Below are positions 47,598 to 57,242 of a DNA stretch of 64,000 bases, piece after piece. This DNA comes from Thermoplasmatota archaeon (lineage in GTDB: Archaea; Thermoplasmatota; Thermoplasmata; RBG-16-68-12; JAGMCJ01): contig JAJISE010000001.1 in NCBI GenBank assembly GCA_022848865.1, positions 49,036 through 113,035 of the forward strand, given 5' to 3'. Under the pieces are notes generated by a model, which had not been told where the DNA came from, did no database searches, and was given only the letters and a program-made list of their open reading frames with translations. Every line of letters begins with the position of its first letter. Positions within the stretch are counted from its first letter, which is position 1. Both the position numbers and the translations under genes were made by a program.

Positions 47598-47819
47598 TTG
47601 ATGATTGAGCGGGCGATGGTCGAAAGACTGGTTCAGCACAAGCACTGCAGGCAATGCGGGCTGGCAACTCCCGCGAAGGACGTCTTCTGTTCGGAGGACT
47701 GCGAGAGCGATCACAAGAGGATGTTGAGGAAGAAGAAGAACCAGCTCCTCTTGCTGTATGTGAGCAGCATCGTCGTACTCATACTCATTCTCCTCCTGAG
47801 CTGGGGGTTGCCCTTCTGA
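47598..47819 (+). CDS. Small zinc-ribbon plus single-TM protein (tentative). It could alternatively start at 47616, which would be leaderless relative to the TATA ttttaata at about 47582.
   Basis: CRQCG...CSEDCE zinc ribbon. A basic patch (RKKKN) precedes a hydrophobic helix, following the positive-inside rule. It overlaps the 5' part of the downstream PPAT-fusion ORF in another frame. Confidence 0.35.
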   Translation: MMIERAMVERLVQHKHCRQCGLATPAKDVFCSEDCESDHKRMLRKKKNQLLLLYVSSIVVLILILLLSWGLPF

Positions 47820-48787
47820 AGGTCTGCCTGGGCGGGACCTTCGACAGGATTCACAAGGGACACAAGGCTCTGCTCGCGGAGGCGTTCGAGATCGGCGACG
47901 AGGTTGTCATAGGCCTCACCTCGGACGAGATGGCGCGGTCTGAGAAGAGCTCCTCGGTGTCCCCATACGATGCAAGAAAGGCAGCGCTCAACAACTACCT
48001 CGCGGCCAGCGGACACTCCAACTTCGAGATCGTGAGCATCGATGACAGGTTCGGACCGGCGAAGACAGAGCCGATCGACGCGATAGTGGTCTCGAAGGAG
48101 ACGAAGGGGACCGCAGAGGAGCTCAATGCGGAGAGGATGAAGTCTGGACTCAGCCCCCTGAAGATCGTCGAGATAGGCATGGTCCTTGCCGACGACTGCG
48201 CTCCCGTGTCCTCGAGCAGGATAAGGCTCGGAGAGATGGACGAGGGCGGCAAGATGGTTCGGCCGCTAATCGTCAACGTCGGGTCGAAGAACAGGACGAA
48301 GATATGGGCGGTCAGGGATGTCTTCCTGAAGCTCTTCGGCAAGGTGGAGGTTCATGGTGTTCCCGTGTCCTCCGATGTACCCAAGCAGCCCGTTGACGAG
48401 GAGGCTATCCGGGGCGCCGTGAACCGCGCCCAGGCAAGCCTCGGGGATGCGGATTTCGGCGTCGGGATAGAATCGGGAGTCGTCTGGAACGAGGAGGCGG
48501 GTTCGCATCTCTGCGTCCAGTTCTGCGCGGTCGTGGACAAGCTTGGAGAGGTAACATTGGGGCACAGTGCGGGATTCACGCTGCCTGCCGAAGTTGCGGA
48601 GAAGATTCGGGCGGGAAGCGATCTCGCGGAGGCCCTGTCGGGTGTGGAAGGTGTCCGAACGGAGGAGAGCAAAGGTGCTGTTGGGTTCCTGTCCGGTAAT
48701 CTCATTTCCCGATCGAGTCTCACTGAGTCCGCAGTTCTGATGGCGATGATCCCGCGAATCCGCAGAGACCTCTACTTCCCAGTCTGA
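47654..48787 (+). CDS. Fusion ORF. The N-terminal part is phosphopantetheine adenylyltransferase (archaeal PPAT, cytidylyltransferase fold) and the C-terminal part is a YjjX/DUF84-type non-canonical purine NTP phosphatase.
   Basis: PPAT HxGH motif (GGTFDRIHKGH) and ...SSRIRLGE end. Without an intervening stop it runs into MVRPLIVNVGSKNRTKIWAVRDVFLKLFG...VHGVPVSSDVPKQPVDEEAIRGAV, which aligns with the E. coli YjjX N-terminus. The internal ATG at 48254 has an SD-like sequence. The true 5' start is uncertain because there is no canonical start near the PPAT N-terminus at about 47810. Confidence 0.65.
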   Translation: MRAGNSREGRLLFGGLRERSQEDVEEEEEPAPLAVCEQHRRTHTHSPPELGVALLKVCLGGTFDRIHKGHKALLAEAFEIGDEVVIGLTSDEMARSEKSSSVSPYDARKAALNNYLAASGHSNFEIVSIDDRFGPAKTEPIDAIVVSKETKGTAEELNAERMKSGLSPLKIVEIGMVLADDCAPVSSSRIRLGEMDEGGKMVRPLIVNVGSKNRTKIWAVRDVFLKLFGKVEVHGVPVSSDVPKQPVDEEAIRGAVNRAQASLGDADFGVGIESGVVWNEEAGSHLCVQFCAVVDKLGEVTLGHSAGFTLPAEVAEKIRAGSDLAEALSGVEGVRTEESKGAVGFLSGNLISRSSLTESAVLMAMIPRIRRDLYFPV

Positions 48788-48925
48788 GCGATCCTCGGAA
48801 TCTCCGACTTCTATTCTCTCTGCCCTTCGCGAGGGAGCGTTCTCCTTCCGAGGCAAACATGCGGGCGGGAGTTACTGCCCTGCTCAAGCACTCCGACGGA
48901 CTACTGAAGGAATCGACGCAGCAGA

Positions 48926-49123
48926 GCATAGGATTCCTATGGCTCGCGTATAGGATTCGTATAGGATCCCTATGGAAACTGTATAGGATTCATATGGGAT
49001 TTGTATGGAATTTGTATGCAATCGGTATGAGTATCTCCTGAGCATCCCCTGAGCATCCTATGGTCATCTCCTGCGAAAGGTATAGAAGAGCTATGGGAAG
49101 AGTATGGGGAGAATATGGAAGTG
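48926..49123. repeat. Eighteen tandem units of an 11-bp degenerate repeat, about 80 bp upstream of the gap start codon. The unit consensus is roughly G/C-TATAGGATTC or G/C-TATGG-RA-NN. Examples are gtataggattc repeated three times, ctatggaaact, atatgggattt and gtatggaattt.
   Basis: I laid the sequence out by hand. Consecutive 11-mers from 48926 to 49123 share a TATGG/TATAGG core at a fixed phase. The array also contains a direct duplicate (tcctgagcatc then ccctgagcatc). The period is not a multiple of 3 and no frame is conserved, so the array is noncoding. Confidence 0.8.
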
Positions 49124-49203
49124 GAGAGGAAGAACTTGACCGTTCAGGGCAGTCCTTCGCAAACCTTTATACTCTTTCCATCGATTGCGGAGCGGGGGTT
49201 ATA

Positions 49204-50214
49204 TTGAGCGTCAAAGTGGCGATCAATGGCTATGGGACGATAGGTAAGAGGATAGCCGACGCGGTAGCTTCGCAGGATGATATGGAAGTGATCGGTGTAA
49301 CGAAGACCAGACCGACCTACGAGGCGAAGATGGCAATCTTGCGGGGATACCCGTTCTACGCAGCATCCGAGGAATCTGTAGGACGCTTCAAGGACAAGGG
49401 AATTGAGGTCCAGGGGACCCTTGACGACCTGCTCGAACAGGCTGACATAGTCGTGGACGGGACCCCCAAGAACATGGGATACAAGGAGACCTACGAGAAG
49501 GCGGGCGTGAAGGCCATATGGCAGGGAGGCGAGAAGCACGAGTTGACCGGGCTTTCGTTCAACGCCCAGGCGAACTACGACGAGGCGCTCGGCGCCGACT
49601 ACGTCAGAGTCGTTTCATGCAACACGACCGGACTCATAAGGACGCTGTACCCCCTTCACAAGGAGTTCGGAGTGGAGTATGTCATGGCCGTGATGATCAG
49701 GCGGGGAGCAGATCCCTGGGATACGAAGAGGGGCCCCATAAATGCGGTGGAGCCCGTGCTCAAGGTTCCGTCACACCACGGTCCCGATGTGCAGACGGTC
49801 ATGCCCTACCTGAACATCCAGACGACCGCGGTGAAGGTCCCGACGACCATAATGCATCTCCATTCCCTCATGGTCAGGCTGAAGCGGGAGGTCAGCAGAG
49901 ATGATGTCCTCAAAGTGTGGGAGAACTCCCCGAGGATCCTCTTCGTTGAGGGGGAGGAGGGAATCAAATCCACGGCCCAGATCATGGAGATGGCCAAGGA
50001 CATGTGCAGGAACAGGGCGGACCTGTACGAGATAGCCGTGTGGCGGGACGGCACCCATGTGGTGGGCGATTCGCTCTACTACTACCAGGCGATCCATCAG
50101 GAGTCCGATGTCGTGCCCGAGAACGTGGACGCGATCAGGGCCATGATGGAAATCGAGAAGGACAACATGAAGAGCATGAAGAAGACGGACCTCGCATTGG
50201 GCATAGAGTGCTAG
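49204..50214 (+). CDS. gap: Glyceraldehyde-3-phosphate dehydrogenase, archaeal type.
   Basis: [19 protein letters not shown] is the archaeal GAPDH N-terminus and the active-site SCNTTGL is present. The start is TTG at 49204, giving [11 protein letters not shown], 5 nt after GGGGG. The track ORF start at 49060 lies inside the repeat array and is spurious. Confidence 0.9.
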
Positions 50215-50367
50215 ATTCGATGAGCCAGATGGTGAGGTTCAAAACCTTACATTGTCAGAAACTTGACAGAAGCCCCGCAGGGAAGCGCCGCGAAAATGGG
50301 GGTAGCGAGAACGGAGCGCCACCGATTTTGAGGGTAGAGGCGAAGCCGAGCACCGCGAGTTTCGAGG

Positions 50368-51438
50368 TCAGTTGGAGCGCCGTACGGCTTCGAGGATTTC
50401 CGAGATACGATCTGCGATATCATCCTCTACACCAGACTGCAAGAGTGAATACATCGCTTCTCGTATCTTTCCGTCAAGCCCATAGTACTTGACGTTGCCC
50501 AGCGAAGCATGCGGCTGAAGAGCTAGATATGTTTCATGGTCACTCTCAAGAACCCAGAAGACAAGGAGTTCCACGGCGTCTGGATGTCCTGCGCCTACGA
50601 GGACGTTGAACGCCCTCTTCGCAATCTGGCGCGAAGGCATCGACTTCCCGATTTCCCTGATCTTCTCCATCCATCGAGACACCACATTCTTCTCAATGGT
50701 TCTCCCTCTGTAACCAAGAATACGGAGGAATTCAAGAGCGCCCTCGATTTCCTTCTCGGATTTGGAGTCCAACGTTTTCCTCACCAGTTCCGGGATTTCC
50801 TCGTGCTCGAATATGATGTACGTGTGCACCATGGACTCGAGGTCCATCAACGCCTCAAGACGAAGCGACGGATTCTCGCTCTTGAGCATCTTCACAATCA
50901 AAGAGGCTTCTGAATCCGGGATTTGCTTCCTTGGAGGCTCTCTCTGTGCCGGCGTTATTTCTGGCCTTTCTCCATGGAGCAATCCCTTCATTCTCAGACG
51001 CATGATTACACCAGCGCTATCAAGGTAGTCTGTCTTATCACCGATACGTATGGGGAACCGGAACTTGTCATCGCAGTGTGGCACGGTGCCCTCCGGTACT
51101 TCGAGAACAAGGAACTCCTTGTTTCCCCATGAAATCCGCTTGCTGTTGATAGCAACAGGTGGGCGGCAGTTCCCTGCCTGCTGAGAGATTCTGCTAGGGT
51201 CTCTCTCATCTATCTGGCATCCAATAGGATTCTTCTCATCGGTAAAACCGAAGACAATGTGACCTCCTTCGTGATTGGCCAAGGCGGCTATGTCCGTCGA
51301 CAATCCCCTAATCACCTCATCCGAAATCTCCCTCTTGAGTTCCACGTGAGAACTCTCGGCATCACGAACTAGCTCCTCAAGATCATCCAGCGTCTTAACC
51401 ATGTCATGTCCCTCCACATAGAACTTCCATCTACCCAA
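50368..51438 (-). CDS. AlbA_2 (Schlafen-like, putative DNA-binding) domain protein with C-terminal HEAT/PBS-lyase-like repeats.
   Basis: AlbA_2 consensus blocks are present (HVELKREISDEV, IAALANHEGGHIVFGFTDEKNPIG). The C-terminal helical repeats include GHPDAVELLVFWVLESDHETYLALQ. It lies within the lower-GC island. Confidence 0.55.
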   Translation of the reverse strand: MGRWKFYVEGHDMVKTLDDLEELVRDAESSHVELKREISDEVIRGLSTDIAALANHEGGHIVFGFTDEKNPIGCQIDERDPSRISQQAGNCRPPVAINSKRISWGNKEFLVLEVPEGTVPHCDDKFRFPIRIGDKTDYLDSAGVIMRLRMKGLLHGERPEITPAQREPPRKQIPDSEASLIVKMLKSENPSLRLEALMDLESMVHTYIIFEHEEIPELVRKTLDSKSEKEIEGALEFLRILGYRGRTIEKNVVSRWMEKIREIGKSMPSRQIAKRAFNVLVGAGHPDAVELLVFWVLESDHETYLALQPHASLGNVKYYGLDGKIREAMYSLLQSGVEDDIADRISEILEAVRRSN

Positions 51439-51679
51439 AGAAATCGGATAGCTCCCTTTCTATCCTTTTCCAAACAGGAATACTACAGTCAATTGTCACG
51501 TGCACGGTGTTCTCACGGACTTCATAAGTCCCTGATAGAAGACCAGTTGGATGAGAGAAATTCCCCCTCCGAGCGTTGCCAGACAGTGACCATCCATTCT
51601 CTTCGGCTCGCTGGTTCACGATTCTGAATAGGTCTTCTGGAGTGTATTTCAAGTCAATATCGTATGTTCTTCTCGCCAT
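51431..51679 (-). CDS. Hypothetical 82-aa protein that overlaps the start of the AlbA_2 gene by 8 nt (same operon).
   Basis: Compact ORF with ATG/stop overlap coupling. I recognise no family. Confidence 0.35.
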   Translation of the reverse strand: MARRTYDIDLKYTPEDLFRIVNQRAEENGWSLSGNARRGNFSHPTGLLSGTYEVRENTVHVTIDCSIPVWKRIERELSDFFG

Positions 51680-52450
51680 TGTCAGAGATATGGCATTGGT
51701 TCCTTATCTATGTGTCCCACGACGTGCGACGACGACTATCCAGCGTGTCCGTTGTACCGGACCAGGAGGCTGTAATCTGGAAAGGGAATCTCCCCGTAGG
51801 TGAACGGCTGGAATCGTCCACTGCCTTCAATGATCCCCTCTCCTACGTTGAGGGCGTCGATGGTTGGCTGATACACTCTGGACCATCGGGGCCTGCGAGC
51901 TGCGGGCAGGTAGGTGAAATACTGGAGCTTCTCGACCAGTCGGTTGTCAATGTCGCTGATGTTGTGGGTCGTTACACAGACGGAGATTGAGCGCCTTCCG
52001 ATAGTTTTCTTATTTGACTCCGAGCTCTATCATCTTCTTGACCAGAAGTCTCTGAACATCTTCATCTTGGAGTATCGTTGAGAGCTTTCCATCCAGGCTC
52101 TCCATTTCGTCCTGCAGTGCTGCCGCAGTCTGAATATCGAGTATGGCCCCACACCCAGTGCAGAACCTACCTGTAGCTTTGGACAAGGCTCAACACGAAC
52201 TCAGGGAGGACCTCCAACCCATACCTCTCACAAACGAGCATAGAAGAATACTTCCCCTGAAGAAGGGATCATCGTACTGCGTAGCTGTATCACAAAGTCG
52301 TCTTACGGTCGCTAGGGATGAGGAATGAATACAGCATTTGGTGTCATATGGAAATGCGTACAGGTTTCTGATCTTGGGAATGATTGTGCAGATGGTGGCG
52401 GAGTCTGCTACCCAGGAGAGGTTTCCCACTTCGAGCTTTCCGGAAGGTCC

Positions 52451-53968
52451 TCAGGGTCCCGCTTCATCTGGCCCTTTCCTTCTATTCACAATCAGCAGTG
52501 CAAGCATCACCACGACAATCCCAACTGGAAGACCTACTGCGATCCACATCCAATCTTGAGAACCCTCCTTCGGCAGAGGACCTCTTTCGAGCACTATCTC
52601 TCCAATATCAATCGTCGGTGTGCCTTCCGATACAGAGAATATCATTGTCTCATGGCCCACATATCCCTCTCTGGATACAAGCACCGTGTAGCTGCCGAAA
52701 GGAACATCGAAAAACTCAAAAACACCATTTGGATCGGCGGTCTCAGCATCCACTATGTTGCCAGTGCCCACATCCTTCAGTTGGACGACTGCGCCTTCCA
52801 ACGGATTCCCTTCCTTGTCCTGAACCGTCCCTGCTATCGTGCCTGTTGTCGTTAGTTCGGCTTCCGTCGTCCAGGTCCATGCATAAGGAGTAGTTGCCAA
52901 TGGATTGCCGTTCACATCGTCGGCTCCTGACACAGTGAATGTGTATGTGATGGAGAATGCAAAGTCATCGCGCGTCCCTGTTATCTTGGTGTCTCCAGCA
53001 TTCCATGTCCACGTCCAACCTCCGACATATGGGTCGATTGTGAAGTCGAAGCTTGTAGTATCCATCGCCTCGCTGAACCTAACAACGACATCTTGGGTGA
53101 TTTGCACATTTGAATCGGAGCTTGCTGGTGTCGTGGAAAGAATCGATGGTGGCGTGACATCGCCCGACGGAGCAGCAACAGCAATTGTATGCAAGACATC
53201 TGCTAACGTGTTAGCAGCTCTATTCAAAGATGCACCCGCACTGTCTTTGAACGCAGGATCTAACCAGTCATAACTACTGTCCATCCAAGTGCAGCTTTTG
53301 ATATCGGCACCATCCCCGAATGTTGTACTATAGGCAACATCAAGTGCGGCATCGTAAGCATCTATCGAAAAAAGAGCCCCATCGAAAGCAAGATAGGGAT
53401 CGAACATGCTCGACATATAGCTCGTCGTCCGATCTCTAACGTAGTTCTCATAATCGCTATGGTGCGTCTCCGCACCCCAATCAGTGCTCGAGCCCATAAC
53501 GTGCCCGAAAACAGCTAGGTCGACTATGTAGTGGCTCATAACACCTGCGTATTTGGCTGCCAGGGCATCGTTCCCACTATTGAGATGGTCGATGACATCC
53601 TCGTATGCTTGCTGGGCTCTTGTTGCAGAAATACCATCCTGCAGATTACCGGACGAATAGTAGTAGACATGGTGGTTGAAAGAGTCACCGATGCCGTCGG
53701 GCGCTCCACCGTTGTCCGGTAGCTCAGTACCGTAGAGATAGTCTTGGAGGTTGCTAAGGATGTATTGCTTCTCATTGCTCGGAAGCCAGTCCAAAGCATG
53801 CTCAGCTATCCAGTCGTGTGTGCCGTAATCAGGATTCGAGGGGTCGGCGCTGTATCCGCCATTGGACCACGCGACGGTTTGTGATGCTGCGAGCAATATT
53901 GGGAGCATGCCTGCAAGCATGATTGCTGTTATGATGTAGACCTTAGTCCTCCTGAGATTCTCCTCCAT
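52451..53968 (-). CDS. Secreted, membrane-anchored protein with a zinc-dependent phospholipase C-like domain, followed by an Ig-like domain, a carboxypeptidase-regulatory-like domain and a C-terminal TM anchor.
   Basis: The signal peptide begins at the internal ATG 53968 (MEENLRRTKVYIITAIMLAGMLPILLAA). PLC-like blocks HDWIAEHAL and SHYIVDLAVFGHV compare with Bacillus cereus PLC HLWIVNRAI and LHYLGDVNQPMHA. The CarboxypepD_reg block is GTIAGTVQDKEGNPLEGAVVQLKD...GSYTVLVSREGY. A TM segment plus NRRKG closes the protein. Confidence 0.6.
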   Translation of the reverse strand: MEENLRRTKVYIITAIMLAGMLPILLAASQTVAWSNGGYSADPSNPDYGTHDWIAEHALDWLPSNEKQYILSNLQDYLYGTELPDNGGAPDGIGDSFNHHVYYYSSGNLQDGISATRAQQAYEDVIDHLNSGNDALAAKYAGVMSHYIVDLAVFGHVMGSSTDWGAETHHSDYENYVRDRTTSYMSSMFDPYLAFDGALFSIDAYDAALDVAYSTTFGDGADIKSCTWMDSSYDWLDPAFKDSAGASLNRAANTLADVLHTIAVAAPSGDVTPPSILSTTPASSDSNVQITQDVVVRFSEAMDTTSFDFTIDPYVGGWTWTWNAGDTKITGTRDDFAFSITYTFTVSGADDVNGNPLATTPYAWTWTTEAELTTTGTIAGTVQDKEGNPLEGAVVQLKDVGTGNIVDAETADPNGVFEFFDVPFGSYTVLVSREGYVGHETMIFSVSEGTPTIDIGEIVLERGPLPKEGSQDWMWIAVGLPVGIVVVMLALLIVNRRKGPDEAGP

Positions 53969-54428
53969 TCCGCCGTTTCCCCCGAATGGCTGAGTGTTGA
54001 ATCCGTTGCGCCGATAAAAGTGTTTCCCAGAAGGCATTTCAGAATCACTTCTCGGGAGCCATTTCAGAGGGAACAGTTTGCCATCGTAACGTCGCTGTTC
54101 ATATCGAAGGAAATCACTTCTCGTCTGAAGGTAGGCTCTTGGAGGCTTTCTCGTGGATTCTGAGCCACTTTCACTTTGGGATGAGCGGAAGCTGTCAAAA
54201 GAGAACCACTGCCAGAGAGCAGTCTGTCTGCCTCTGTGTGCATTTCCTGACTCTCCTTCGCTAGAGTGCATTGGGACGGTCCTCTCAAACCGTTTCCCAT
54301 CCCGAGAGGGATATGCAAATAGGATGATATGATTATTTTCTGAGCATATGTGATGGAAAGTGTCTAATAGCAGGTATGATATAAAGCTCAGCAAAGCATA
54401 TAGTCTGATAATCCATGCTTAGCATATC

Positions 54429-54656
54429 TTGGTATCAGACAAGTCTGCTTTCGGGGATGATGAAGTGGAAAAGAAGATTCTGGAGGCAATTCGCAATAGT
54501 CCAAGGGGAACCTATATCGAAGAGCTGGCGAGGGAACTCAAGTTGAATAGAGCGACTATCAAGGATCGGGTAATCAGATTGGAAGCTCAGGGAAAGATAG
54601 AGGCCGAGAAGAAAGGAGCTACCAAGATGCTCTACTACAAAGAGGACGGGAACTGA
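54429..54656 (+). CDS. Small winged-helix DNA-binding protein, a possible controller for the adjacent R-M genes.
   Basis: The 75-aa protein has wHTH-like ILEAIRNSPRGTYIEELARELKLNRATIKDRVIRLEAQGKI. It lies immediately upstream of the methyltransferase. Confidence 0.45.
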   Translation: MVSDKSAFGDDEVEKKILEAIRNSPRGTYIEELARELKLNRATIKDRVIRLEAQGKIEAEKKGATKMLYYKEDGN

Positions 54657-54689
54657 GTTCCAGTGGAAATGACGGGGACGGTGTCTTAG

Positions 54690-55490
54690 TTGGCCGGCGA
54701 AGTGATTTTGGGCGATGCCCTGGAAGGCATGGAGAGACTGGACAAAGAGACCTTCGACTGCGTCTATGCAGATCCAGACTACAATGTGGGAGTGAACTAC
54801 AATGGCAAGAGGTACAAGAGATCTTTTGAGGAATACATCGAATGGTGCTCTGAGTGGTCAAGGGAAGCCCACAGGCTACTCAAACCCACCGGTAATTTCT
54901 TTGTGGTGAACTACCCAAGGAACAATGCCTATCTTTGGGCAAGCACTCTGGACGAATTGTACCACGATGTGCAGGAATATGTGTGGGTCTATAACACCAA
55001 TGTGGGGCATTCACCGAAGAGATTCACTACAGCTCATAGGTCAGTTCTCCACTGTCGAAAGACCAATGACAACAACTGGTTCAAGGATCAAGTGGCTCAA
55101 CCGTACAAGAATCCCACGGACAAACGCATAAGAAGGAACATCGCCAACGGATCTAAGGGAAGAATGCCGTATTCTTGGCTCTATTACAACCTCGTGAAGA
55201 ATGTCTCAAGGGAAAAGACAAATCACGTATGTCAAATCCCACAGAAGCTTTCGGAACTGCTATTCAAGGCCTCCATGAAAAAGGGTGACAAGGTCCTGGT
55301 GATGTTCGGGGGCTCGGGTAGTGAAGTCTTGGTGGCAACTCGTCTTGGGCTGGAATACACGACCTTCGAAATAGACCCCAAGTATCACAAGCTCATTCTC
55401 AAGCGAATCAAGAGAGTAGAGACGGCGGTCAGAGAGGGAGAGTTGAAGCCCCTAACATATTATACTGAACCGCTCTCACAAACTCAATAG
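54690..55490 (+). CDS. DNA methyltransferase (beta-class N4-cytosine/N6-adenine).
   Basis: Motif IV variant DPDY (VYADPDYNVGVNY) sits near the N-terminus and motif I FGGSGS near the C-terminus. This is the beta-class order. Confidence 0.75.
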   Translation: MAGEVILGDALEGMERLDKETFDCVYADPDYNVGVNYNGKRYKRSFEEYIEWCSEWSREAHRLLKPTGNFFVVNYPRNNAYLWASTLDELYHDVQEYVWVYNTNVGHSPKRFTTAHRSVLHCRKTNDNNWFKDQVAQPYKNPTDKRIRRNIANGSKGRMPYSWLYYNLVKNVSREKTNHVCQIPQKLSELLFKASMKKGDKVLVMFGGSGSEVLVATRLGLEYTTFEIDPKYHKLILKRIKRVETAVREGELKPLTYYTEPLSQTQ

Positions 55491-56247
55491 AATTGAAGTC
55501 CAGAGAGTTCTTGAACCTATACTCATGAAGCCTTACATAGCTCTGCTTCTTCGACTTAACCATGTTAGCGTAGATGTATCTGAGGCTGAACTTCGGTGGG
55601 ATGACTTTCTCCCTCTGGAACTTCTCGAAATACTTCATCGCTGTGAATAGCTGTCTGATCTCGAAGTTCGTCCTTGTCCCTCTCTTCACTTCTATTGGAG
55701 CGATAACGTCTTTGCCCTCCACAAATCCATCGATCTCCAATTGAAGTTGGTCTGGGTAGAAATCGTACTTGCCTATCTTGAAGTGAAATGAGAACTTCGA
55801 GCGTCTGGAATTGTGGATACGCAAGTCAGCGTCTCTCCGTCCGCATAGGAAATCGTGGAGTATCCTCTCGTTGTAGAGTGTCGAGAATGCCGAAGCCTCA
55901 CTCGCTCCAATCTCGTCCAACATGCTACCCCTCAACTTCCAGGGTTTGACTTCGTCCACATCCTCCAAGTAGTGATAACCGGTACCGCTGACGAAGGCAT
56001 GGTTTCCCCTTCCGAGATGGATGATAAAATAGCCCTCATCTTTCAAGGCTTCGGGCAACCTCTCATAGGTGTCAAACTTCGTCGCATCGAACTGATTGAC
56101 AAAGGCATACTTGACACAAATCTCCCTCACTTGGGGCGTGTTGAAATTGATGACATCGAGTCTTTCATCTTCGGGTTTCAGTCTTGTGAATAGCTCCGTA
56201 ATGATTCGCCGTTTCTTACCCTCTTTCTTTGCCATCTTTTCAGACAA
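55429..56247 (-). CDS. Putative type II restriction endonuclease, convergent with the methyltransferase and overlapping it by about 60 bp.
   Basis: A PD-(D/E)xK-like block is present (IDGFVEGKDVIAPIEVKRG). The call rests on R-M gene context. There is no family-level similarity that I can verify. Confidence 0.4.
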   Translation of the reverse strand: MSEKMAKKEGKKRRIITELFTRLKPEDERLDVINFNTPQVREICVKYAFVNQFDATKFDTYERLPEALKDEGYFIIHLGRGNHAFVSGTGYHYLEDVDEVKPWKLRGSMLDEIGASEASAFSTLYNERILHDFLCGRRDADLRIHNSRRSKFSFHFKIGKYDFYPDQLQLEIDGFVEGKDVIAPIEVKRGTRTNFEIRQLFTAMKYFEKFQREKVIPPKFSLRYIYANMVKSKKQSYVRLHEYRFKNSLDFNSIEFVRAVQYNMLGASTLPL

Positions 56248-56474
56248 AGAGGCAGTGGACTATTAACCTTTGGTGAGTGAGTCAATGTCCGACAGCTGCC
56301 ATCCAGTATTCCGAGGAATATCCTAACTAACGGGAAGGGACCCCGTCCGACTTCTGTCAGCCAGCATTTCGAAGGAGTGTATCACTTAACGGCACGGAAT
56401 CTCTGAACCGAAACCAGCAAGTATGTCTAGTAGGTTAGGAAGGTCGATTCCTGCGAAAGGAAGGAGTGTAGACC

Positions 56475-56865
56475 ATGCCTCGGAATCACCTGGAGCAACT
56501 GGTTCATGAATGGTATGAGTACAATGGATACTCTGTGCGGAGTAACGTCAAAGTGGGCCCACGTCCCCATGGCGGGTACGAAGGCGAATTGGACATTGTT
56601 GCTTTCAACCCAGAGTCAGGAGAGATTGTCCACGTTTGAATCTTCTAACGACGCTCTTTCTTGGATCAAGAGAGAGATGCGGTATGAGAGAAAGTTCAGC
56701 CTTGGAAAGAGATTCATTCCTGGACTATTTCCAAAGAGCCAGTCAAGACTAGATCAGATAGCTCTCCTCGTCTATGCAAGCAAGGATGCCCAAGGAAAGG
56801 AGTTGGGTGGAGGGTATGCACCATCGGTGGTTTTCTGGATGAGATATGTGCCAAACTCCTTGTGA
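56475..56865 (+). pseudogene. Frameshifted small PD-(D/E)xK nuclease-fold gene.
   Basis: A 54-codon ORF follows the strong SD AAGGAG and reads ...GELDIVAFNPESGEIVHV before a stop at 56637-56639. The protein continues in the adjacent frame (ESSNDALSWIKREMRYERKF...) to 56865. A 1-nt indel near 56636 is implied. Confidence 0.45.
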
Positions 56866-57242
56866 AGCCCCCCCGAAGTGAGGCAGTTCCTGAGAACTAC
56901 CCGTTGTTGAGGACCATTCAGTTTGTGTTGCACTTCACAGAGTTGGGAAGATCTAATCCTGATCGAAGCCTGAAAAATGAGAACCAAGTCGAAAAGCCCC
57001 GTTTCGAACCCATTTGGGCCCGAATCCCCGTGAGCCCGTACCTCTCTTGCTGGCTGAAAATCAATTCGCGGTTTCTTCAATCTTGCTATCTGATCCTACG
57101 GACTTCTTCTCGACAACATCCCTTACCCTCTCCCCAAGGGATGCCTTCGCGTTGGCTACTGCGGGCGAAAGGATTATAGAACCCGAGCCATATGTGAAGC
57201 TCCAGAGGGGAGGAATGTGAAAGTGTCCTGGAGGGCTCAATC

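Follow-up and report, generated by a model that had tools for sequence, protein, structure and literature searches.

An 11-bp direct repeat array upstream of gap in an uncultured Thermoplasmata archaeon, possibly one of a small family of dispersed protein-binding arrays

Background

A 64,000-nucleotide stretch of archaeal DNA (contig JAJISE010000001.1; hereafter the window) carries an array of 18 contiguous 11-bp direct repeats directly upstream of gap, the gene for glyceraldehyde-3-phosphate dehydrogenase (GAPDH). The array was found in the same place in four diverged, species-level lineages of one clade, and homologous arrays were found at unrelated loci. The explanation that we favor, tentatively and short of calling it probable, is that the array is one of a small lineage-specific family of dispersed, ~200-bp, iteron-like protein-binding arrays, possibly derived from a mobile element. 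An earlier description of the region, made from the sequence alone (the original prediction), had proposed a regulator array or a curved element in front of a central metabolic gene. What stood of that interpretation was a real, non-coding array that is not a CRISPR and is compatible with protein binding, while a regulator dedicated to gap and intrinsic curvature were not supported. The named relatives of the window GAPDH were all metagenome-assembled genomes (MAGs) of Thermoplasmata, and the host of the array is an uncultured Thermoplasmata archaeon.

Results

Structure of the array

The array consisted of 18 head-to-tail units, each exactly 11 bp long (198 bp in all), in the register TATRGnnnnnn and free of insertions and deletions (indels). 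The original prediction had placed it at 48926-49123, which is the same array offset by one base; every 11-mer that was quoted was present, including the tandem pair tcctgagcatc/ccctgagcatc, and the proposed autocorrelation check on an 11-bp period of 18 units gave a peak at lag 11. The match fraction was 0.588 at lag 11, 0.557 at lag 22 and 0.558 at lag 33, as against 0.26 in shuffled sequences (n = 2000), with z-scores of 10.7, 9.2 and 8.8, respectively, and all remaining lags were at or below background. The array and its four blocks were as follows.

48927-49124, plus strand: array, 18 contiguous 11-bp units, TATRGnnnnnn (lag-11 z 10.7, indel-free, unique in the window)
48927-49014, plus strand: block 1, units 1-8, of the TATRGGATTY type (for example TATAGGATTCG, TATGGGATTTG); the part in common with a diverged array at another locus, L143
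49015-49036, plus strand: block 2, units 9-10, two odd units (TATGCAATCGG, TATGAGTATCT)
49037-49080, plus strand: block 3, units 11-14 (CCTGAGCATCC twice, TATGGTCATCT, CCTGCGAAAGG), with the degenerate core YMTGNG
49081-49124, plus strand: block 4, units 15-18, of the TATRGRRAGAG (TATGGRAAGAG) type

The information was concentrated in unit positions 1-5 (T, A, T, R, G), with T at position 3 and a purine at position 4 in 18 of 18 units, and was low in the nearly random positions 8-11. Tandem Repeats Finder returned four overlapping period-11 rows at the array. When the whole window was scanned with a sliding frame of 110 bp, lag-11 identity reached its maximum of 0.69 inside the array; the runner-up outside it was 0.41 and the window mean 0.243 (standard deviation 0.046). 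Twelve of the 72 plus-strand copies of TAT[AG]G in the window lay in the array, the minus strand of which had none, and all nine pairs of this motif at an exact 11-bp spacing fell inside it. A weight matrix for three in-phase units scored 34.7 in the array and no more than 11.0 in the rest of the window on either strand.

A coding sequence was considered and rejected, in agreement with the original prediction: the sole forward open reading frame (ORF) that spans the array starts at an ATG (48859) that is AGG in relatives, and the ORFs that cross the array were not conserved there. The array was also rightly said not to be a CRISPR, since its units are 11 bp, contiguous and spacer-free, whereas CRISPRs have 25-40 bp repeats and unique spacers. 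The G+C content around the array was 0.55-0.59, with no AT-rich block. As regards replication-origin iterons, there was no rep, orc or cdc6 gene among the neighbors, and an AT-rich unwinding element was absent.

Position relative to the gap promoter

The array was directly upstream of gap, as originally described, and was co-oriented with it. Its end was separated from the TATA box by 41 bp and from the TTG start codon (49204) by 79 bp, with the TATA box ~32 bp ahead of the start. The features between the upstream gene and gap are listed below; numbers preceded by L designate the loci compared, and BRE is the TFB recognition element.

47654-48787, plus strand: upstream gene, a CTP_transf_like (PPAT-type) and NTPase_I-T fusion, from the Pfam annotation of orthologues
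48788-48926, plus strand: part A, the non-repeat left part of an insertion; 93% identical to L004, RNA fold z -1.05
49125-49160, plus strand: part B, the non-repeat right part of the insertion; 89% identical to L004, longer in L001 and different in L003
49161-49203, plus strand: ancestral gap core promoter, BRE/TATA AAACCTTTATAC (TATA TTTATAC 49166-49172), and short leader; the same AAACCT(T/A)TATA in L008 and L010
49169-49181, minus strand: inverted block-4 unit ATACTCTTTCCAT (reverse complement of ATGGAAAGAGTAT) overlapping the TATA box; 12/13 complementary to 49093-49105
49204-50214, plus strand: gap, type II (archaeal) GAPDH, TTG start; best match 98% identical over 336 aa, Gp_dh_N and Gp_dh_C domains

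The 12/13 complementarity at the TATA box was reached by two of 500 shuffled promoters, and the inverted unit was kept in all of the array-bearing loci. It is partly ancestral, as the promoter of the array-less locus L010 has TATATCTTCTTGATGA at this position.

Distribution among relatives

The gap loci of 13 related GAPDH clusters were compared, and synteny was conserved throughout. The array was present in L001 (GAPDH 98% identical in amino acid sequence), L002/L003 (89%) and L004-L007 (87%), with gap nucleotide identity down to 82%, and was absent from L008/L009/L138 (85%), L010-12, L136/137 and L139 (87%), L013 (76%) and L014/15 (75%). The array-bearing loci had 334-415 bp between the upstream gene and gap, while the array-less loci had only 33-133 bp. 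The 146-kb contig of L002 ended inside its gap array. In L008 and L010, AAACCT(T/A)TATA immediately followed the upstream stop codon and the remaining core promoter aligned with window 49161-49203. Because the promoter directly follows the stop codon in these relatives, the ~370 bp at 48788-49160 is an insertion between the stop codon and a pre-existing gap promoter. Inspection of the ends of this insertion by eye revealed no convincing target-site duplications or terminal inverted repeats.

In the gap nucleotide tree the array-bearing loci formed one clade, with the array-less 85-87% group as its sister and L013 and L014/15 outside, so the simplest history is a single gain of the array in the ancestor of one sub-clade. 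The original prediction had allowed for a strain-specific slippage expansion, which does not fit the four diverged lineages that hold the array in the same place and the same 11-bp register with largely the same unit order. The check that it proposed, of homologous gap upstream regions, showed the array in these four lineages of one clade and none in the sister clade or the outgroups.

Evolution of the array

The four array-bearing lineages had 18, 19, 19-20 and 18 units. The length differences between them were whole units every time, and there was no phase-breaking indel in five arrays. The order of the blocks was common to the four lineages, and the order of the units was colinear among the window, L001 and L004 and partly in L003, across lineages that were 26-54% different at four-fold degenerate (4-fold) sites. 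Within block 3 the window and L004 differed in unit order through whole-unit moves only, and the block 2 unit TATGAGTATCT was identical in the window, L001, L003, L004 and L165, a second array locus described below. Recent adjacent duplicates were seen in the window (CCTGAGCATCC twice), L001 (TATAGGATTCG twice) and L003 (TATGCATTTTG twice).

The window and L004 arrays were 86% identical with zero gap columns. The 4-fold sites of seven genes pooled from the same pair were 74% identical (n = 837), and the identity of the array was higher (Fisher p = 5e-4). The divergence of the array is about half that of 4-fold synonymous sites, a moderate constraint as judged from sequence comparison. The 4-fold sites of gap itself were only 60% identical in this pair, as against 72-87% in six neighboring genes, which hints at recombination or at faster evolution of gap in one lineage. 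Because gap is an outlier, a benchmark based on gap only would overstate the constraint on the array.

The DNA adjoining the array was lost or replaced independently in two lineages. Window positions 48803-48908 of part A were deleted in L001 and the whole of part A was absent from L003, and the array was kept in both. Part A has small GC-rich hairpins (CCCTtcgcgAGGG, GGAGcgttCTCC), and at 93% identity to L004 it was more conserved than either flanking gene, yet it was lost in L001 and L003.

Arrays at other loci

Thirty-one loci were found when metagenomes were scanned for a three-unit pattern specific to the family. Most were unrelated low-GC tandem arrays, and two, L165 and L143 from one metagenome, fit the lineage in G+C content and unit types. 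The array in L165 (1,972 bp) was 84-89% identical to those of the window, L001 and L004/7 over ~170-200 bp and 78% identical to that of L003; it had the unit order of the window, and the homology stopped exactly at the array edges. The order of features in L165 was a C-terminal fragment of a tyrosine recombinase, a gene for a 127-aa helix-turn-helix (HTH) protein resembling HTH_23, 62 bp, the array and a gene for a hypothetical protein of ~359 aa. The latter gene reads away from the array, and the array is antisense to both neighboring genes.

The ~359-aa protein was conserved across Thermoplasmata with graded identity and was encoded on long contigs in more distant relatives, and the gene therefore looks chromosomal. 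GenBank MAGs with a GAPDH identical to that of L004-L007 also held the ~359-aa protein (at least 90% identity) under nearby accession numbers, and the HTH and ~359-aa proteins of one MAG had consecutive locus tags, V3V98_07495 and V3V98_07490, respectively. From these data we infer that L165 is a second array locus of the same species as L004-L007.

In L143 an enoyl-CoA-hydratase-like gene and a 186-aa ORF were separated by a diverged array with 77-80% identity to block 1. This array shared the 5-bp core and was co-oriented with the flanking genes. Because homologous arrays sit at unrelated loci, the array is not specific to gap.

The 186-aa ORF of L143 (343-903, minus strand) had a homologue at 1430-2014 of L050, from an Anaerolineales genome (37% identical, tblastn E = 7e-11), which starts ~50 bp downstream of a TATRG 11-bp array, a coincidence between a Thermoplasmata-like contig and a bacterial genome. 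The family had no Pfam, PHROG or NCBIfam match, and there were no further members among ~150 fetched loci or the viral contigs.

The helix-turn-helix protein and a possible junction

A GRP motif was invariant in the 127-aa HTH protein and its relatives, which also shared a tri-helical HTH and a conserved helix at the C terminus. All 12 aligned members matched HTH_23 (best E 2.8e-07) and six of the 12 matched the resolvase family HTH_7, weakly; the profile of the family also gave weak matches to the invertase Bin3 of Tn552 (C-terminal region) and the transposase IstA of IS21 (N-terminal HTH). In the AlphaFold model, residues 31-70 had a predicted local distance difference test score (pLDDT) of 83-94 and were accompanied by a disordered linker and the C-terminal helix. 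It is plausible, from these family matches and the model, that the protein is a sequence-specific binder of element-associated repeats. No arrays were found at L174, the locus of a distant HTH homologue, and searches for viral relatives of the HTH and 186-aa proteins found none. The cluster of the HTH protein at 90% identity or more contained one named NCBI MAG protein, and the ~359-aa gene occurred in many MAGs, including those with an L004-type GAPDH.

Three independent assemblies from three samples, L176 (2288-2365), L177 and L178, all ended 77 bp past the stop codon of an HTH homologue that was 54% identical, and the shared end point was where L165 enters the array. The coincident ends suggest a repeat or mobile-element boundary. 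The homology of L176 to L165 ended, and that of the window to L165 began, within the same 7 bp, CCAYTTC.

As regards recombinase adjacency at an element/chromosome junction, one mark of an attachment (att) site, the L165 copy had it and the gap copy, in the window and L001-L007, did not. Only a single array was present in the 64-kb window, so no attL/attR pair was seen there.

Wider scans

A reference-genome scan for four successive TATRG-N6 units gave at least 120 matches, which among those listed (L016-L135) were mostly from Bacteroidota and Rhodobacterales. Many of these bacterial genomes had short 11-bp TATRG direct-repeat arrays of 4-9 units, some with conserved flanks at several sites per genome (for example Bacteroidaceae CAVEIE01). 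The genes beside the bacterial arrays were ordinary (soxB, tig, murG) and of no common family. In viral contigs, the TATRG core was similarly abundant at 10-, 11- and 13-bp spacing among the matches listed. A cross-domain class of 11-bp TATRG arrays was rejected, because the 10- and 13-bp spacings saturate the viral contigs alike and the neighbors are unrelated housekeeping genes.

BLAST searches of phage and plasmid records with the array gave no matches, and two array-specific patterns returned only chance or unrelated 3-unit matches in viral contigs. A viral, phage or plasmid origin was rejected on the grounds that none of these searches found a similar array.

Helical phasing, curvature and RNA folding

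Relaxed B-DNA has ~10.5 bp per turn. The original prediction had every copy of the motif face the same side of the helix, which is approximately so, but because the period is 11.0 bp the successive sites rotate by ~17 degrees per unit, or ~290 degrees from first to last. By this geometry, bound proteins would follow a shallow superhelix, or the DNA would need to be underwound. Intrinsic curvature was estimated with a Bolshoy-type dinucleotide wedge model. The mean was 8.4 degrees for the array and 8.0 for the window, 37% of 199-bp windows were more curved and the end-to-end ratio was 0.956 as against a mean of 0.951, so the model did not support the curvature that had been proposed.

The RNA of the array folded somewhat better than shuffled sequences on the plus strand (z = -2.7) and not on the minus strand (z = -0.4). 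There were no Rfam families or tRNA genes in the whole window.

Neighboring genes

A TFB gene lay further upstream of the PPAT/NTPase gene. The listed ORF of the latter is 377 aa, and its true start is probably internal, to judge from the annotation of relatives and of different assemblies. In relatives a separate gene for a DUF2116 zinc-ribbon protein of 64-72 aa overlaps the 5' end of the PPAT/NTPase gene (window 47598-47819), and the length of the PPAT/NTPase protein varies with the gene caller between assemblies (285, 319-330 or 377 aa).

Downstream, synteny with L001 and L004 stopped exactly at the gap stop codon, and the genes found after gap in relatives, for a SpoU methylase and a pseudouridine synthase, did not occur in the remainder of the window. 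After the stop codon, the window had 136 bp in common with L007 (7012-7148), and the two then diverged. The region 50213-57000 of the window had a G+C content of 0.47-0.51 and encoded an AlbA_2/Schlafen protein (50368-51438), a PLC-like secreted protein (52451-54394), an N6_N4 DNA methylase (54690-55490) and a DUF6996/DUF6997 protein (55429-56247). This low-GC stretch is probably an integrated island with a restriction-modification system.

Discussion

The position and register kept across lineages, the divergence below that of synonymous sites and the concentration of information in the core all fit an array of sites for a protein. If the array is a protein-binding array, each unit, with its TATRG core and variable tail, would be one site for a sequence-specific DNA-binding protein, and the contiguous spacing of one site per turn would allow many copies to bind side by side and cooperatively. 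The bound copies might then form a nucleoprotein filament or shallow superhelix abutting the promoter, and through the inverted unit over the TATA box the same protein could occlude the core promoter or loop to it. Such an array would modulate the neighboring promoter, or act architecturally, at the site of any copy rather than as a metabolic operator specific to gap. A speculative candidate for the binder is the 127-aa GRP-arm HTH protein encoded 62 bp from the L165 array, which would imply an origin from a mobile element.

Several observations weigh against this explanation, 1) the core was better conserved than the tail when all pairs were pooled (0.83-0.97 vs 0.69-0.77), which is partly trivial as every unit has the core, and between the window and L004 the core (0.88) was almost matched by the non-core (0.84), so that site-specific selection is not demonstrated, 2) mismatches by unit position were not significantly uneven in a chi-square calculated by hand (~15, 10 df, p ~0.13, window alone), 3) other intergenic DNA of the same genome pair was 81-90% identical, so the constraint on the array is real but ordinary in degree, 4) the phase between the array and the TATA box varied, by -3 in L001 and -1 in L003, 5) the orientation of the array relative to the downstream gene differed by locus, 6) slippage alone can yield whole-unit indels and a steady periodicity, 7) the window had no homologue of the HTH protein, and no candidate binder was encoded beside the gap copy, and 8) Foldseek gave only generic small-HTH matches for the HTH model, all with E > 0.07.

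The most serious alternative, which we nevertheless regard as unlikely, is that the array is an att or arm-site array: an integrative element with a tyrosine integrase and an excisionase-like or accessory HTH protein would carry it or be targeted to it, its units would be arm-type or accessory-protein sites, and the gap copy would be a relic or an empty att site that does nothing for the host. In lambda, Xis forms a microfilament on adjacent direct repeats. The L165 array lies 62 bp past an HTH gene that itself follows a recombinase fragment, and the conserved chromosomal ~359-aa gene on its other side gives the locus the look of an element/chromosome junction. The HTH cluster in one named MAG, set beside the ~359-aa gene in many, fits a variably present element; the three assemblies of the related HTH locus end where L165 enters the array; and the meeting of the two homologies within CCAYTTC would fit the crossover core of an att site, although an overlap of 7 bp is weak evidence. 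The neighborhood of gap is also plastic, with a probable island starting right after the stop codon in the window and L007. On the other hand, no integrase, HTH gene or second array flanked the gap copy in five loci and the 64-kb window, the segment shared with L165 was the entire 198-bp array, far beyond the usual att cores, and there was no similar array in viral contigs or phage and plasmid records. Nor should an inert relic outlive its flanks or evolve below the synonymous rate. These last two properties also weigh against a neutral or selfish minisatellite, which we consider somewhat less likely still: a chance 11-mer duplication in the inserted fragment would have been expanded by slippage or unequal recombination, inherited vertically and duplicated once or twice, with the birth and death of units keeping the periodicity. 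The lineage-specific copy number, the recent adjacent duplicates and degenerate units, the conservation no higher than that of other intergenic DNA and the sister clade that lacks the array, and so does not need it for gap expression, all agree with this, and TATRG arrays of period 10, 11 and 13 are common enough in viral contigs to make short-period arrays unremarkable. It accounts poorly for a unit order that stayed colinear at a 26-54% 4-fold difference with no phase-breaking indels in five arrays, for the retention of the array where the adjoining insertion DNA was lost twice, for a divergence about half the synonymous rate (p = 5e-4), for the concentration of information in a 5-bp core common to the diverged L143 array and for the inverted unit at the TATA box.

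Two further functions have been considered for the array. The original prediction was of an operator specific to gap, for a TrmB- or Lrp-like regulator of sugar metabolism, or of a curved upstream element, and there is now little reason to expect either. In favor of an operator, the typical binding site of an archaeal activator is just upstream of the BRE (PMC5512572), and the array ends 41 bp before the TATA box, is co-oriented with gap and has an inverted unit over that box. The closest array-less relatives, however, have this promoter immediately behind the upstream stop codon, the sister clade and more distant relatives have the same gap promoter with no array, and array homologues occur at unrelated loci. 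The palindrome TATCAC-N5-GTGATA of TrmB-type regulation (the Thermococcales glycolytic motif) had no match within 3 mismatches at 48700-49300. The wedge-model curvature was ordinary and the array-to-TATA phase was not conserved. A role at the RNA level seems more remote again; here a transcript of the array, whether a 3' extension of the upstream mRNA or the product of a separate promoter, would serve as a repeated-motif RNA, such as a sponge for a protein that recognizes UAUGG/GGA. The better folding of the plus strand, the GGA or GGG in most units and the co-orientation of the gap and L143 arrays with flanking genes accord with it. The fold signal was weak and came from partial palindromes within units, however, there was no Rfam match or evident promoter upstream of the array, and the L165 array is antisense to both neighbors. 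Known sponge RNAs use hairpins, and an 11-nt spacing is too tight to leave room for them.

Relation to known systems

Binding arrays of contiguous helical-period sites are a known kind of element, and so are dispersed minisatellites. The closest known architecture to a protein-binding array at gap is parC of plasmid R1, in which contiguous 11-bp direct repeats bind one ParR dimer per iteron cooperatively and the iterons double as promoter operators (PMC2241845). In both cases the repeats are right beside a promoter. R1 parC has two sets of 5 near-identical iterons flanking the parMR promoter on a bacterial plasmid, whereas the gap array has 18 degenerate units on one side of an archaeal chromosomal housekeeping promoter, paralogous copies and no parR- or parM-like genes nearby. 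The neighbors of the array, the PPAT/NTPase gene and gap, are in conserved chromosomal synteny, and there was no plasmid match. Because the par genes and the plasmid context are absent, the likeness is a resemblance and not membership. A bolder version of the protein-binding explanation would make the arrays a chromosomal system, an archaeal analogue of the ParR/parC operator-centromere, in which ~18-site phase-locked arrays nucleate filaments of a small resolvase-type GRP-HTH protein, domesticated from an integrative element, beside the promoters of gap and of the genes for the 359-aa and 186-aa proteins, with a silencing or architectural effect through inverted units over the TATA box. We consider this improbable.

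In the PHO boxes of Streptomyces PhoP and the heptamers of SARP/AfsR regulators, monomer sites are arranged head to tail every 11 bp, with a core of 5-7 bp and a variable spacer. These sites of OmpR/PhoB-type winged-helix proteins are like the gap array in their 11-nt direct repeat units with a conserved core and a variable part, but they comprise 2-6 units over the -35 region of bacterial sigma-70 promoters. The gap array is three to nine times longer, archaeal and upstream of a BRE/TATA, with no linked OmpR-type protein. Lambda Int/Xis arm sites are tandem direct repeats about one turn apart, bound cooperatively by small HTH or winged-helix proteins and located beside the integrase gene. The L165 copy is similarly next to integrase and HTH genes. 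The sites number 2-5 in known att arms, and the gap copy has no nearby integrase and no element between duplicated sites.

Among archaeal elements, the EarA boxes, the ara box and the upstream activating sequence (UAS) of GvpE also have repeated short motifs immediately upstream of the BRE/TATA, four 6-bp sites in the case of EarA (PMC5512572). These have only 2-4 sites, belong to particular genes and are retained wherever the operon that they regulate is present, whereas the gap array has 18 contiguous units, is absent from the gap promoters of the closest relatives and is present at unrelated loci. Prokaryotic variable-number tandem repeats and the pneumococcal BOX elements are likewise intergenic and tandem, vary in copy number by lineage and occur at more than one locus. 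The gap array differs from them in a period of exactly a nominal helical turn, a conserved core and a unit order kept across species-level divergence, and no terminal modules or inverted repeats were found in it. We know of no prior description of an 18-unit degenerate array, shared across species beside an archaeal housekeeping promoter, with paralogous copies.

Conclusions

Very little is known of the regulation of archaeal promoters by upstream elements, and nearly all of it comes from a few cultured species. If the arrays bind protein, they would represent an unusually long phase-locked platform that was recently inserted beside a housekeeping promoter and duplicated elsewhere, and would point to the co-option of mobile-element DNA-binding modules into archaeal chromosomal regulation or architecture. 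If they are neutral, they would be a caution that strict helical-period arrays can persist for long without function and that a position beside an important gene is not evidence of regulation. Public metagenomes contain coexisting sister populations, some with the array and some lacking it, and these constitute a natural experiment on the expression of gap.

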